DNA of 64,000 nt from a virus. Numbering within the stretch: the first letter of the stretch is position 1; the number at the start of each line of letters is the position of its first letter. This document shows positions 44,377 through 57,040 of the stretch, piece after piece. A program made the position numbers and the translations under genes. Location of the stretch: IMG/VR virus record IMGVR_UViG_3300029998_000020, positions 9,130 through 73,129 of that record; one strand, 5' to 3'. Under the pieces are notes generated by a model. It did no database searches. It was given only the letters and a program-made list of their open reading frames with translations, and had not been told where the DNA came from.

Positions 44377-47300
44377 TTAATTTAAACTGACTAAATTTCC
44401 AGTTATTATATTTAAGCTATTAGCTGCATTATTAGTAGTCCAATTAAATTGAATATCTAATATTTGATCAACAGTGGTATTAATTACAACATCTGATAAA
44501 CAAGGAAGTGGTACTATAGCTCCAGTTGTATTTACTCCATCAATTATAGAATACCCTGTGCATCTACATGTTCCAGATGAACCAGTTGTGTAAACATTTA
44601 AATTTACATTTTTTGCAAAGAAATTATTTGTTCTGCCATCAAAAAATTCAACTACAGAGTTTAATGTTGTCACAACACCAGTACCACTTATTAACTTAAC
44701 TGTTAATGATGCTGTTGAGTTATTAGCACATGTATAATATCCCATCAATTCAATTTTATATGCCTTACCAATTTTTAATGTACCAGCTTTTAATGGTCTA
44801 TATTTAATGAATTGTTTACCAGATCCAGTTGAACCAGCATAATTATTTGTAATCGTAAGATGAGTGTCATCTGTTACAGATGCAATTTTGTATATAATTC
44901 CTAATATACTAATATATTCTCCAACACAAAATCTTCTATGACCAGAATTTACAAATGTAGTTCCACTTCCAACTATTGAAGTACTACCACTAGTAACAGA
45001 AATTGTACCAGTTGAGTATTCATATAACAATGATGTTTGACCTGCACCATTTGGTACATTAATTAATTTTCCAACTGTTTTTATTACTCCTGATGCTGTT
45101 ATCTCAGTTCCAGAATCATCAGCCCATCTCAATGATTGTCCGCCATTTTGAATATCTCCTGAAATTGGAGTAGTTTTTAGAGGACCAGGATTTGCGTGTA
45201 TAGCAGCAGAATTTATTGATTGTTCAGTCAATGTGATTGTTGAACCAGTAATATCTCCATATATTATAGTAGTTCCAGTCACAGACAATATAGTTCCTGT
45301 GTATATTAATCCACTCTCAGCATATACTCCATTAGATGTACCATCTGATGTCAACACACGATTATCAGCATAATTAGTAACTGAATTAAATCCTGTGCCT
45401 GATGTTCCATTGGTTCCTGAACTTCCTGATGTTCCATTGGTTCCTGAACTTCCTGATGTTCCATTTGTGCCTGATGTTCCATGTATTCCTGATGTTCCAT
45501 TTGTTCCTGAACTTCCTGATGTTCCATTTGTCCCTGATGTTCCATTTGTTCCTGAACTTCCTGATGCACCATTGATACCTGATGTTCCATTTGCTCCATT
45601 TGAGCCTGATGTTCCATTTGTGCCTGATGTTCCATTTGCTCCATTTAAACCTGATGTTCCATTTAAACCTGATGTTCCATTTGTACCATTTACACCTGAT
45701 GTACCATTAATACCTGAACTTCCTGATGTACCATTCGTACCATTTGCACCTGATGTACCATTTGCACCTGATGTACCAATTGCTCCATTTGTGCCTGATG
45801 TACCATTTGTTCCTGAACTTCCTGATGTTCCATTTGTACCATTTGCTCCTGATGTTCCATTTGTGCCTGATGTTCCATTTGTGCCTGATTTTCCTGGTGC
45901 GCCATTTAATGATATTGTCCAATAATTGTATATACCACTACCAATAGATGATGAAATATTTGAGAAAATTTCACCTGTTATTTTATCGTATGATAATATT
46001 TTATCAATCATGTAGTTTGATGAATCATGAGCTATTATAATATCTTGTCCTGAGGATAATGATAAACCAGTTTCGACAAAAAATGATATTGTACCACCAG
46101 ATACTATTTCTAATGTACTATTAGAAAATGTTGTGTATTTATCTCCACTTAATCCATTTGAACCTGATGTTCCATTTGTACCTGAACTACCATTTGCTCC
46201 TGAACTACCTGAACTACCTGAACTTCCTGATGTTCCATGTATACCTGATGTTCCATTTGTACCTGAACTTCCTGATGTTCCATTAGTTCCTGATGTTCCA
46301 TTTACACCTGATGTTCCATTAGTCCCTGATGTTCCATTTGCGCCATTTGATCCTGATGTTCCATTAGTCCCTGATGTTCCATTTGCACCATTTGATCCTG
46401 ATGTTCCATTAGTCCCTGATGTTCCATTTGCGCCATTCACACCCGATGTTCCATTTGCGCCATTCGCACCTGATGTTCCATTTGCGCCTGATGTTCCATC
46501 TATACCAGATGTACAATGATTAGTATTTTCATTGTTTATACTTACATATATTTTACCAGTCAATGAATTAGATTCAATAACATATCCAATTTTATTAATT
46601 TTGCTATTTAAATTTAAATAACTAATATTATTAATCATATCTCCACTAATTGTATCAGATAGATATAGCATATCACCAACATTATAACTAGATGTATTTA
46701 AATTCTTAATTATTCCAGATATTAATATTAATCCAAATGAGTTTGTTTCAATATCAGAAACTGTTATTCCATCAGCATCAGATAAATTAATATATGATGG
46801 AGATGTTAATGCCAAATCTATTGTTGGTATTCCATTAATAGCAGAAGATATGTGTACAATTTTACCCTTGCTAATTTGATTTCCAGAATTATTATATATT
46901 TTAAGATATGATTGTTGTCCAACATTTACAGAAACATTGTTTTCTAAATCTGAATAATAAGATATAGAATCGTCAGTATTATTATAAAACAATCCTCCTG
47001 GAATATTAGGTGGTGATGTTAGTCCTGTGTTAAATTGAATATAATTAGATTTAGCAAATCCAATATTTGGTACTTCATTAGTAATTTTAATGAATATTTT
47101 ACCTTTGGTTGAATTTTTACTAATAACAAATCCTACTTTATTTATTCTACTGTCAAATTTTAATGATAATAAATCTGTTGTCGTTTTACCGCTGTATATA
47201 TCAGACGAATAAAGGATGTCAGCTACATTATACATTGATGTATCAATATCAGATAATATACCATTAGTCAATACTAACCCTACTCCGTCATTTGGTATAT

Positions 47301-54577: not shown

Positions 54578-57040
54578 TTAAATTTCATATTGTATTTCCA
54601 ATATTTTATTTCTTTCATAAAATACTATTAGCAATTTGTTTGTATCTTCAAATAATTTTATTTTCGGAATACACCAACTTACACTATTTTTATTTAAAGA
54701 TATTTCAGATATTGTGTAATATGTTTTATTAGTATTTAAATCTTTAATGTCAATATTTAATGACTGCAAATCATCACCATTATAATATATCATCAATTTA
54801 TTTTCATTTCTATCATAACTTATTTTTATGTTATTTTTATCTAAATTGTAATCAATTATATATTTTTTAAAATCAAATAATTTAGGATTTTCTACCAATT
54901 TTGATTCAATTATTCTATCAGTTATCATTTCAGGAGTTATGTTAATAGAACATTCAAATTGTTTATCTGTATCTTTATGCATAGGACACCAATTCCAATC
55001 ACCTGGATCAAATTTATGAGTATTAAAACATCCATTACAAACATTAAAATTGTGTATATTTATGTTATTAGTTTTAAACTCACAAAAAGGATTAGAAAAA
55101 CCTGACATCATTACTACTTTTTTACCTACAGCCCATGCCAACCAACTCAATCCTGAACCAATTCCAATATAGAATTCACACCATTTTAATTGATTTATTC
55201 TGTGCTCAATAGGAAAATCACCAGTGTTATCTATAATATTTTTTAGATTTGTTGATTGCTTACTTATTGTCATAACTTTATACCCTTGCGTATTAAGCCA
55301 ATCAACTAAAATTTGCCATCCTTTATTACTATCTTTACAAGGATAATGCCAATGTTTAGAGTTCGCAGTTGAGAATTGCCCAATACAAATATATTTTTCT
55401 TTAATTGGTCTAACGCCTTCAGGAATTTCAATCTTTGGTATTATTTCTTCATATTCTAATCCAAGAATATCACTTGCTGTTTTTTGTAATGGTATGGTTT
55501 TATAATCAATCGGATTTTTATTACTATCAAATGGTGAATACCATCCAATTTTATATTTAGCATATAAATTTTCTGTGTTTGCTTTTCCTGGATCAACAAA
55601 TGTTATTTCTGGGTATTGTTTTATAAACCAACTATTCCAAAATGTTGAGCACTGAATATTACAATTATGTTTTTTTCTAAATTCTTCTACATATGGAAAC
55701 CATGCTAATGTATCTCCAATTGATTTACTTTCTATTGTTATTAAAACATTTCTATTTGTTAAATCAAAATCATGTGTAATTAATTCGTTATTATGAAATA
55801 TATTAATTTTATACTCCTTATAACATTCATTATTTGTACGACACCAATTATTGTTATTTAATGTTTTTTTGTATATAATTTCTTTTGTATTTTTATCTAT
55901 TATTTCAACATCAAACTCAGATTTTACATCTCCAAGAATTTCTACATTTGCACCGTTAATAAAACTAATATTATAATCATATTGTGGTTCTATTAATTTT
56001 TGAATTGTTTTATTAAGATTAAGTGTGTCATTATATTCTGTTGTTAATCTTGATTCAAATGTTACATTATTATCTATTCTTTTAATATTAAAATTATCCA
56101 AAATTCTTTTAGAATCTTTATCAACATTCATTGTTAAATATTTAATATTTTTGCATGAATCATAAGTATCTAAATATGTATTAAGATTATTTAAATAAAT
56201 AGGCATATTATATGATGTTGCTTCTTTAACAGCTAACGGGTTCAACTCTAATATAGAAGAATGAATTAACAAATCAGATGCTTGGTAAAATGTATCAACG
56301 TCACTTCTTTCTCCATGTATTATACAATTAATTGGTTTATTATTTAACAAAGGTTTCCAATAATCTTCAAAATTTTCTGCTTGATTACCAACAAAGTGAA
56401 ATTGTATTTTATAGTCTTTTAATTTTTCAGCTATTTCAAATACATATCCTTGATTTTTTCCTTTTGTGAATAACCCAACATTTAAAACATGAAAATACTC
56501 AGAATCAAATTTTAATTCGTCAATAGCTAATCCTTTATTTGCTATTAATTTTTCAGATGGATATTCAATAATAGAAGATGGAATATTGAATTTGTTATAT
56601 TGTAGTTGTGAATATTTTGATACAAATAAAAATTTATCTGGGAAATATTTTTTTTTGCTAATATCAAAAGTTGAAGTATGAGTAGTTTCTATTATTTTAT
56701 ATGGTCTGTCATTTCTATATAACCAATTTATATGCTCATTTCTCATTCCAAAAATAAATATTTCTGGTATTTCTTCCATATGAATAATATCAGGATTGAT
56801 ATTATTAATTATATCTTCAAACAAATCACGCTTTGTTTCATTTTCATTATCTCCAAGCGAAATGAATTTATCTCCTAATAACTCAATAAGTCTATTCCTC
56901 TGCACAACAAAACTCCAAGAAATTTGTCTATATTCAATAAGATATACATCATTTGTTTTTATTAAATATTCTACTCTTTTAAGAGCTACCATCGGAAGTC
57001 CTCCTGTAGATCCGTGAGGAATTATTATAAGTATTTTCAT
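54578..57040 (-). CDS. Fused GT4 plus AAH/TibC-like (autotransporter heptosyltransferase family) glycosyltransferase
   Basis: GT4 NVGLF...KNQ...E..PL...EA; SIGDTLAWFPYVEEFRKKH, GIGSGLSWLAW, CNGCFN...WCP...FEC. Confidence 0.8.
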   Translation of the reverse strand: MKILIIIPHGSTGGLPMVALKRVEYLIKTNDVYLIEYRQISWSFVVQRNRLIELLGDKFISLGDNENETKRDLFEDIINNINPDIIHMEEIPEIFIFGMRNEHINWLYRNDRPYKIIETTHTSTFDISKKKYFPDKFLFVSKYSQLQYNKFNIPSSIIEYPSEKLIANKGLAIDELKFDSEYFHVLNVGLFTKGKNQGYVFEIAEKLKDYKIQFHFVGNQAENFEDYWKPLLNNKPINCIIHGERSDVDTFYQASDLLIHSSILELNPLAVKEATSYNMPIYLNNLNTYLDTYDSCKNIKYLTMNVDKDSKRILDNFNIKRIDNNVTFESRLTTEYNDTLNLNKTIQKLIEPQYDYNISFINGANVEILGDVKSEFDVEIIDKNTKEIIYKKTLNNNNWCRTNNECYKEYKINIFHNNELITHDFDLTNRNVLITIESKSIGDTLAWFPYVEEFRKKHNCNIQCSTFWNSWFIKQYPEITFVDPGKANTENLYAKYKIGWYSPFDSNKNPIDYKTIPLQKTASDILGLEYEEIIPKIEIPEGVRPIKEKYICIGQFSTANSKHWHYPCKDSNKGWQILVDWLNTQGYKVMTISKQSTNLKNIIDNTGDFPIEHRINQLKWCEFYIGIGSGLSWLAWAVGKKVVMMSGFSNPFCEFKTNNINIHNFNVCNGCFNTHKFDPGDWNWCPMHKDTDKQFECSINITPEMITDRIIESKLVENPKLFDFKKYIIDYNLDKNNIKISYDRNENKLMIYYNGDDLQSLNIDIKDLNTNKTYYTISEISLNKNSVSWCIPKIKLFEDTNKLLIVFYERNKILEIQYEI

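Follow-up and report, generated by a model that had tools for sequence, protein, structure and literature searches.

The 64,000-nucleotide stretch of DNA analyzed here, referred to as the window, corresponds to bases 9130-73129 of a 92,766-bp IMG/VR virus record and carries, on the minus strand at 44377-57040, a group of glycosylation-type genes together with two genes for Ser/Thr-rich fibers. Judging from sequence comparisons, we consider this locus to be, on balance, probably a virion-fiber O-glycosylation cluster of a Mahaphage-like huge phage. Fiber O-glycosylation is the best reading because the central enzyme, an 820-amino acid (aa) fusion of a GT4 glycosyltransferase and a TibC/Aah domain, is a true member of the BAHT family and falls in a clade associated with collagen-like genes. 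In its branch of the family, the usual partner of the enzyme is a Pro-free Gly-Thr/Ser-Ser/Asn collagen-like protein and not an autotransporter. The features of the locus are listed below, with the evidence for each in parentheses.

54578-57040, minus strand: 820-aa fusion of GT4 and TibC/Aah with a 110-aa C-terminal extension (Pfam, TIGR04414, PDB)
56051-57040, minus strand: GT4 (retaining GT-B) domain of the fusion, aa 1-330 (Glycos_transf_1, E-x7-E)
54911-55966, minus strand: TibC/Aah (BAHT) domain of the fusion, aa 359-710 (TIGR04414, TibC alignment)
52512-54542, minus strand: 676-aa IPT/TIG-repeat protein (PF01833, NF058597)
51486-52397, minus strand: 303-aa GT-A-fold glycosyltransferase-like protein, phrog_4417 (AlphaFold2 model, Foldseek)
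50697-51467, minus strand: 256-aa GT6 (PF03414)
49985-50716, minus strand: 243-aa GIY-YIG/NUMOD3 homing endonuclease (PF01541, PF07460, phrog_314)
49353-49970, minus strand: 205-aa GT25-like protein, phrog_24091 (ESM Atlas features and structure)
48576-49274, plus strand: 232-aa Lys/Asn-rich protein (no Pfam match at E up to 1)
44377-47952, minus strand: 1191-aa collagen-like fiber (PF01391, tail-fiber PHROGs)
46138-46506, minus strand: collagen block 1 of the fiber, aa 483-605 (Gly-X-Y count)
45391-45903, minus strand: collagen block 2 of the fiber, aa 684-854 (Gly-X-Y count)

Two plus-strand genes, of 134 and 232 aa, lie between the 205-aa gene and the fiber gene; the former, like the latter, gave no usable Pfam match at E up to 1. 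An initial annotation, made from the DNA letters, had described a fiber with two long Pro-free blocks, a Thr/Ser-rich IPT/TIG protein, a GT6 gene and a GT4 plus Aah/TibC-like gene retaining its Cys cluster. All of these stand in the results below and the coordinates given for them match throughout; the GIY-YIG homing endonuclease between the GT6 and GT25-like genes is an addition.

The GT4-TibC/Aah fusion enzyme

The TibC/Aah domain scored 308 bits against TIGR04414 (hepto_Aah_TibC, equivalog cut-off 200) over model positions 15-371 of 374, and a profile search at the contig level recovered it at 310 bits without internal stops. The TibC structures 4rap and 4rb4 matched the 820-aa protein in a PDB sequence search at E 2e-59. 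In TibC, Asp110 is the catalytic base, Thr226, Lys230, Arg286 and Trp305 contact the heptose and Cys339, Cys342, Cys358 and Cys370 of the iron finger coordinate Fe; mutation of key residues (catalytic, heptose-binding and Cys) abolishes heptosylation, and all characterized BAHTs named in the same paper act on proteins (PMC4358343). Alignment of the phage enzyme to TibC, with positions checked by script, places the catalytic Asp at D443, the four heptose-binding residues at T558, K562, R614 and W633, and the four cysteines at C668, C671, C685 and C697. These cysteines, which are predicted to bind Fe, are invariant in an alignment of six phage homologs. The site associated with D,D- versus L,D-heptose preference (Pro300 in TibC, Ser294 in Aah) is Gly628 in the phage enzyme.

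The N-terminal barrel region of TibC (residues 1-97) is reached by the phmmer and TIGR04414 alignments over residues 38-97. The corresponding Pfam family PF21129 (TibC_1st) was not reported for the 820-aa protein and is weak (E 5e-4) in the homolog from the cultured Microcystis phage Mel-JY01. The GT4 part matched Glycos_transf_1 at aa 175-285 (44-46 bits, cut-off 26.4) and has the E265-x7-E273 motif, while the 110-aa C-terminal tail had no family match in Pfam at E up to 1. Pfam showed neither an AIDA nor an autotransporter domain in the window cluster, where the neighbors are the TIG protein and the collagen-like fiber; AIDA-type neighbors were seen exclusively in the sister clade of the enzyme (clade A, below). 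The conserved residues and family scores mark the 820-aa protein as a genuine member of the TibC/Aah (BAHT) family.

Association with collagen-like genes

According to a profile scan, at least 587 stretches in IMG/VR encode a relative of the TibC-like domain. The best 80 of these were pooled with loci found earlier, and grouping at 80% identity yielded 45 clusters. Every one of the 45 has a GT4 gene either fused to the TibC-like gene or beside it, and in 27 of them the cassette directly precedes the genes for tail sheath (PF04984), tube and T4-type baseplate. Of the 31 clusters whose upstream flank exceeds 6 kb, 21 have in the locus a same-strand, Ser/Thr-rich Gly-Thr/Ser-Ser collagen-like open reading frame (ORF); the background in large related contigs is about one collagen-like ORF per 100-250 kb. 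Such ORFs lie on both sides of the enzyme gene in loci L042, L050, L080 and L093 and directly after it in L085 and L099, yet the immediate neighbor is collagen-like in only 5 of the 45 clusters. The link between enzyme and collagen-like gene is one at the level of the locus (about 10 kb, same strand) and not of strict adjacency. The pairing is also present in phage Mel-JY01 and in the 735-kb phage LR756501. A literature search found no published description of a TibC-type enzyme paired with a phage collagen-like fiber.

Cellular genomes were scanned using one genome per prokaryotic species, which gave 69 loci, and a maximum-likelihood tree was built from 107 TibC-type domains, with E. coli TibC left out. 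The tree splits into clades A and B with 100/100 support. The 35 rows of clade A come exclusively from cellular genomes (Acetobacteraceae, Paraburkholderia, Selenomonadales and others), and a Ser/Thr-rich collagen-like ORF is absent from the locus in every one. Two of the four clade A neighbor ORFs scanned encode AIDA-repeat proteins, one combining the repeats with an autotransporter beta-domain (L127) and one with a Hint domain (L157). Clade B comprises 72 rows from phages and some cellular genomes, and 41 of these have a collagen-like ORF in the locus, a ratio that is unclean in numerator and denominator because of short flanks in many of the unlabelled loci. The window enzyme belongs to clade B, within a 7-row megaphage subclade that includes LR756501. 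Clade B also includes Methylobacter chromosomes (about 50% GC), where the enzyme gene is preceded, at a distance of 40 nt, by a collagen-like gene of 281-287 aa that adjoins mfd. Several low-GC contigs in metagenome-assembled genomes (MAGs) are probably mis-binned phage contigs, so host calls from these rows are unsafe. The TibC domain of L103, from a MAG labelled Flavobacteriales, is nearly identical to that of the viral locus L075.

Two loci show other arrangements. L050 contains at 15729-18185, inside its collagen/TibC locus, an 818-aa fusion of GT4, GT25 and an OGFOD2-like 2-oxoglutarate (2OG)-Fe(II) oxygenase, which recalls the hydroxylase-plus-GT25 modification of collagen in animals and Mimivirus. 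In L014 (11987-14888 and 19124-20524), three paralogous Kelch/RCC1-like fibers with a common N-terminus flank the GT4-FkbM and methyltransferase-TibC genes, as do proteins with long Thr-Pro linkers, in place of collagen-like genes. Given these Kelch/RCC1-like neighbors, the cassette may serve several fiber types.

Candidate acceptor proteins

The 1191-aa fiber matched Pfam Collagen (PF01391) with 136 bits (E 3e-40) as well as tail-fiber PHROGs. Its parts are a pair of repeat modules (about 190 aa) at the N-terminus, the two collagen blocks with a globular spacer, and a domain at the C-terminus; the N- and C-terminal domains gave nothing usable in Pfam (E up to 1). Block 1 has 41 uninterrupted Gly-X-Y triplets with 0 Pro and 13 N-x-S/T sequons, and block 2 has 57 uninterrupted triplets with 1 Pro and 21 sequons. 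In both blocks X is chiefly Thr and Y chiefly Ser or Asn. Because Pro is essentially absent (1 per 98 collagen triplets), a triple helix is presumed for this fiber. Block 2 is followed by a G-T-G-F-N...N-R-V-L-T-S-D-G junction common to the fibers of L002 and L099.

The 34 N-x-S/T sequons in both collagen blocks together are mostly N-G-T and N-G-S. This motif is used by cytoplasmic HMW1C-type N-glycosyltransferases; no GT41-type enzyme was among the proteins scanned against Pfam, and no search aimed at GT41 was made. ORFs encoding P-D-V-P-F-V-P-E, antisense to the collagen blocks (45395-45925 and 46133-46519, plus strand), are frame artifacts of the Gly-X-Y repeat. A similar situation is seen in the GenBank record of Mel-JY01 (L016, 635-3052), where the annotated coding sequence 739-2298 is antisense to what appears to be the real collagen-like gene, on the plus strand and with 149 Gly-X-Y triplets. 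In the same record, the GT4-FkbM-TibC protein is named only "methyltransferase FkbM".

The second candidate acceptor, the TIG protein, matched PF01833 in 4 stretches (80 bits) and NF058597 (82 bits). Its Ser plus Thr content is 24%, or 24-30% when orthologs are included, and its gene starts 35 nt downstream of the GT4-TibC gene. In a single comparison, the N-terminal 28 aa resembled those of the collagen-like protein beside the LR756501 TibC gene (36% identity, E 8e-5); compared with other fibers by BLAST, the N-termini of the TIG protein and of the fiber otherwise gave weak matches only.

Gene order was compared in eleven closely related IMG/VR loci (L002-L012), in which the enzyme is also fused and 65-88% identical to that of the window. 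The conserved order is GT4-TibC, TIG, 303-aa GT-A, sometimes GT6, the 134-aa gene and DNA polymerase. TIG orthologs (42-70% identity) directly follow the fusion gene in all eleven, and the 303-aa gene adjoins the TIG gene in all relatives. GT6 is missing in L009, L010 and L012, the GIY-YIG endonuclease occurs in the L003 group but in neither L002 nor L011, and no homolog of the GT25-like gene was found in L002-L014. The distance from the 134-aa gene to the polymerase gene, the interval that holds the fiber gene in the window, is about 220 bp in L002 versus about 3.9 kb in the window. In this lineage the fiber is a variable insert, and the genes conserved beside that of the enzyme encode the TIG protein and the 303-aa GT-A protein. 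The contigs of relatives G001-G003 have one collagen-like ORF each, separated from the cassette by 4-12 kb; the separation in G004 is 50 kb.

Accessory glycosyltransferases

The 256-aa protein is a GT6 member by PF03414 (58 bits, cut-off 25) with a D91-A-D93 (DXD) motif and N-D-E-S at aa 184-187. Its closest solved relative is BoGT6a of Bacteroides ovatus (E 6e-14). The DES motif aligns between the two, while the phage DAD takes the place of NAN in the metal-independent BoGT6a. A score of 78 bits against NCBIfam NF041524, below the cut-off of 250, puts the window GT6 outside that subfamily.

The initial annotation had also proposed a GT25-like and an HPAT/SGT-like gene, and these fared less evenly. 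ESM Atlas relates the 205-aa protein to GT25-annotated clusters by features (scores 0.97-0.98) and by structure (TM 0.76-0.85), and an E76-D-D motif is present; however, it falls below the Pfam GT25 (PF01755) cut-off (E 0.02, 15 bits versus 24) and a PDB sequence search gave no matches. As the support is limited to similarity of features and structure in ESM Atlas, "GT25-like" is a fair label.

For the 303-aa protein, the glycosyltransferase part of the proposal stands and the family part does not. The protein matches phrog_4417 (E 1.5e-69) and no Pfam family at E up to 1, and its 523 homologs are chiefly on large phage contigs. An AlphaFold2 model built on 26 homologs has a pLDDT of 95.7, and the best Foldseek matches of this model are the UGGT GT24 domain, ABO/alpha3GalT GT6 and glycogenin GT8 (E about 1e-7, TM about 0.5). 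The fold search gave 299 PDB matches at E<=0.001, and the listed top 50 are all GT-A enzymes. D99-P-D101 is invariant in the 26 homologs, and H250 is invariant as well. The 303-aa protein thus has a GT-A fold and is taken to be a GT-A glycosyltransferase. HPAT/SGT (GT95/GT96, PF23452) gave no family match, PF23452 appearing on 10% of one rank-9 Atlas cluster; the HPAT/SGT-like assignment is not established, since no sequence family supports it and the fold is nearest to GT24, GT6 and GT8. PDB matches of the 303-aa protein to TALE repeats (high scores, zero passing stretches) and, weakly, to the TPA1 hydroxylase were discarded as compositional artifacts. In other huge phages, members of this family occur in baseplate/fiber operons near a gp25-like gene and are translationally coupled to large structural proteins; they are also found in phages without a TibC gene nearby.

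The GIY-YIG gene is a mobile insert amid two glycosyltransferase genes, and its position next to the GT25-like gene suggests a recombination-prone spot. By eye, the C-terminus of the 232-aa protein (D-I-D-H-I-I-E-L...N-L-R-T-L) looks HNH-like; its gene and the GIY-YIG gene flank the lineage-specific GT25-like gene on either side.

Proposed function and alternatives

We propose that, in the cytoplasm of the infected cell, the TibC-like domain would use ADP-heptose to attach heptose to the hydroxyl groups of Ser (perhaps Thr) in freshly synthesized fiber proteins, the candidate acceptors being the 1191-aa collagen-like fiber and/or the TIG-repeat protein. The fused GT4 domain would add a second sugar, and the glycan may be lengthened or capped by the 303-aa GT-A, GT6 and GT25-like enzymes. 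Donor, acceptor and sequence of reactions are inferred, as is any benefit, which could be fiber stability, shielding from proteases or antibodies, or altered adsorption. Helix stabilization and glycan mimicry are speculation. A more elaborate version of the proposal is that this large and undescribed TibC/Aah branch, present in hundreds of phages and in some bacteria, heptosylates the Y-position Ser of Pro-free Gly-Thr-Ser helices and GT4 extends the glycans, which replace hydroxyproline as the stabilizer and coat the fibers; here it would be extended to the TIG fiber and a GT6-made, ABO-like alpha-Gal/GalNAc cap. As a whole this version seems doubtful.

Evidence on the supply of the donor is indirect and comes from close relatives. 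Their contigs encode a heptose-1-phosphate adenylyltransferase (201 bits, above the cut-off) and a phosphoheptose isomerase GmhA (202 bits, just under the cut-off of 209). Stand-alone adenylyltransferase and GmhA genes lie at G002:C1:47815-48228 (L021) and G001:C1:175631-176089 (L022). These genes are scattered, apart from each other and from the TibC cassette.

A number of observations weigh against fiber O-glycosylation. No heptose-pathway gene was found in the 92.8 kb available, a heptose kinase (TIGR02198) was not found in the five contigs searched (four of them from relatives), and the GmhB match is weak (63 bits in a 313-aa ORF) and could be another HAD phosphatase. The iron finger of TibC recognizes a beta-helix, a shape far from a triple helix or an Ig-like domain. 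The collagen-like fiber is 6.6 kb from the enzyme gene in this lineage; since it is missing at this position in the closest relatives L002, L009 and L011, and since LR756504 has a TibC-like gene yet no collagen-like gene at all, it is not an obligate partner. Short flanks also affect many of the clade B loci that lack a collagen label. The cluster adjoins a DNA polymerase gene, and a glycan has been observed on none of these fibers. Finally, phage heptose pathways can also feed DNA hypermodification (bioRxiv 10.1101/2023.12.21.572611). The claim of the initial annotation that the phage glycosylates its own fibers is therefore kept in qualified form: the recurrent pairing of cassette, tail module and collagen-like gene speaks for it, while in this lineage neither the fiber nor the GT25-like gene is syntenic with the cassette.

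The internal alternative to be taken most seriously has the TIG protein as the acceptor here, with the same O-heptosylation chemistry, and makes the collagen fiber an unrelated recent insert. A TIG ortholog directly follows the fusion gene in every close relative, where the fiber and GT25-like gene are missing; tibC-tibA and aah-aidA of E. coli are likewise adjacent pairs (PMC4358343). The Ser/Thr content of the TIG protein is suitable, its N-terminus is like that of the collagen-like protein next to the LR756501 enzyme, and the slot that its gene holds, right after the enzyme gene, is taken by collagen-like genes in L042, L050, L080, L085 and L099. However, the recurrent partner in the wider clade is collagen-like and not TIG, G001, G002 and G003 keep a collagen-like ORF near the cassette, and the two acceptors are not mutually exclusive. 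We consider an exclusive role of the TIG protein unlikely. It is somewhat easier to imagine, although we still lean against it, that only the GT4-TibC fusion is fiber-directed and that the GT6, GT25-like and 303-aa GT-A enzymes are unrelated passengers in a recombination-prone region rich in homing endonucleases. The patchy occurrence of GT6, the absence of the GT25-like gene from all relatives examined, the GIY-YIG gene between the two, a DUF7487 gene beside the split polymerase gene and the occurrence of the 303-aa family away from TibC genes would all fit. Yet these genes are co-directional with gaps of 14-114 nt, the 303-aa gene stays beside the TIG gene in all relatives, and in L050 a GT25 domain is itself part of a fusion within a collagen/TibC locus.

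Two further explanations leave virion proteins out, and both appear very improbable. Enzymes of the GT25, GT4, GT6 and GT9 types are classic in the synthesis of lipopolysaccharide (LPS) and capsule according to their family descriptions, at least three further glycosyltransferase genes occur along the contig, and the many glycosyltransferases of cyanophages have been interpreted as remodeling the host surface (PMC12801897). The window enzymes could similarly modify the host surface (LPS core, capsule, adhesins), for instance as a bar to superinfection. This would leave the tight phylogenetic link with collagen-like genes unexplained; moreover, the BAHT-specific iron finger is kept, the N-terminal barrel region appears to be kept at least in part, and the cassette lies in tail/fiber modules and not in early or host-takeover regions. 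The accessory transferases may nevertheless have a role in remodeling the host surface. Marginally less credible still is that some or all of the transferases glycosylate phage DNA, as hypermodified bases protecting against restriction, and are near fiber genes by coincidence. Phage GT-A and GT-B enzymes do place mono- and di-heptose and other glycans on 5-hydroxymethylcytosine, and their genes are often near DNA polymerase genes (bioRxiv 10.1101/2023.12.21.572611), as the end of this cluster is. A thymidylate-synthase-family gene (203 bits) in a relative (G001:C1:103250-104044) could be a true synthase or a dCMP/dUMP hydroxymethylase, and for the GT-A, GT6 and GT25-like enzymes any acceptor is putative. 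On the other hand, the published DNA heptosyl transferase is T4 beta-GT-like and not BAHT-like (bioRxiv 10.1101/2023.12.21.572611), whereas the characterized BAHTs named in PMC4358343 are protein-directed without exception. The location in tail-structural modules in 27/45 lineages, and beside collagen-like genes in bacterial chromosomes too, also argues for protein targets. A search of the available 92.8 kb for thymidylate-synthase-family (PF00303) genes was negative; 5mYOX/TET genes were not searched for.

Comparison with known systems

The closest known systems are the TibC-TibA and Aah-AIDA-I pairs of E. coli. Enzymes of this family form a ring-shaped dodecamer and use ADP-heptose to modify Ser. 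The phage enzyme belongs to the same family and has in common with them the catalytic Asp, the four heptose contacts and the four Fe-binding Cys. In each case the gene is beside one for a repetitive Ser/Thr-rich surface fiber, and the logic of cytoplasmic hyper-glycosylation is presumed to be shared. Unlike TibC and Aah, the window enzyme is phage-encoded, is fused to a GT4 domain and a 110-aa tail, and has Gly at the Pro300/Ser294 donor-stereoselectivity site. It also belongs to a fully supported clade (100/100) whose neighbors are Pro-free collagen-like proteins, or here TIG, instead of AIDA-type beta-helix autotransporters.

Phage-encoded glycosyltransferases with structural proteins of the same phage as targets, here putative, are also found in mycobacteriophages. 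The targets reported by Freeman et al. 2023 (Cell Host Microbe), as summarized in PMC12619734, are the C-termini of capsid and tail-tube subunits; PMC12801897 also cites that work. The window differs in having BAHT, GT4, GT6 and GT25-type enzymes with likely fiber targets, and in being known from its DNA sequence. To our knowledge, glycosylation of virion proteins by phage-encoded enzymes has been demonstrated only in mycobacteriophages.

O-glycosylated collagen-like proteins include the BclA exosporium filaments of Bacillus, Mimivirus collagen/L230 and the cuticle collagen of Riftia, in which glycosylated Thr stands in for hydroxyproline in stabilizing the helix. GT25 is the family of animal collagen galactosyltransferases. 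Compared with the window, the BclA, Mimivirus, animal and Riftia collagens are modified by other initiating transferase families and at other residues (Thr in G-x-T, hydroxylysine). A hydroxylysine route is unlikely in the window fiber because its repeats contain almost no Lys or Pro.

Phage DNA-glycan clusters resemble the window in being multi-glycosyltransferase clusters, sometimes with heptose-activating enzymes and near replication genes. They are anchored by 5mYOX or thymidylate-synthase-like genes and use JGT/TarP-like GT-A or T4 beta-GT-like GT-B enzymes (bioRxiv 10.1101/2023.12.21.572611, Pyle et al.), whereas the key enzyme here is a BAHT, a protein-directed family.

If fiber O-glycosylation is correct, protein glycosylation would have to be counted as common among aquatic and huge phages, given the number of viral stretches with the enzyme (at least 587), and a family known only from autotransporter adhesins would gain a new class of acceptor. 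It could explain how Pro-free collagen helices are stabilized or protected, and would bear on the modeling and expression of phage receptor-binding fibers. A testable function would follow for the gene pair in the cultured phage Mel-JY01 and in Methylobacter luteus. The window adds to this the presence of the cassette in a Mahaphage-like genome, a conserved TIG neighbor as an alternative acceptor, and a link, in close relatives, to phage-borne GmhA and adenylyltransferase genes.

Source of the contig and other genes

The window has a GC content of about 24%, and CheckV estimates the completeness of the 92.8-kb record at 13%. Against phage LR756501 (735 kb), the split family-B DNA polymerase has 55% identity, falling to 38-42% against the other phages, of 460-640 kb, from the same accession series. 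These identities and the CheckV value point to the contig being a piece of an uncultured Mahaphage-like huge phage of roughly 700 kb. A giant eukaryotic virus was considered as the source in view of the 24% GC, the collagen genes and GT25, and was rejected because the polymerase and gene content fit huge phages. Further window genes consistent with a huge phage encode Hsp70, PhoH-PIN, an intron-split RtcB, a radical-SAM enzyme, NAD synthase and proteins matching tail-fiber PHROGs.

The 493-aa N-terminal part of the polymerase is encoded at 42736-44217 (minus strand). Beside it, a 329-aa gene at 41707-42696 (plus strand) has a DUF7487 domain and a treble-clef zinc-finger motif and is probably a homing-endonuclease-like insert. 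Beyond the window on the same contig, a second Fib_succ_major protein of 1077 aa is encoded at G000:C1:73303-76536 (L172). Farther along, at G000:C1:81602-84096 and 88801-89601, are a GT4-like protein of 432 aa, a double GT2 of 399 aa and a GT2 of 266 aa; with this extra GT4-like gene and the two GT2-type genes, the contig has about 8 glycosyltransferase domains in about 40 kb. The Hsp70 of the window is full-length (14133-16007, 666 bits). An Hsp70-family gene also occurs about 2 kb upstream of the collagen-like/TibC pair in a Methylobacter chromosome (L105, 3040-4800), and this shared presence is probably a coincidence.

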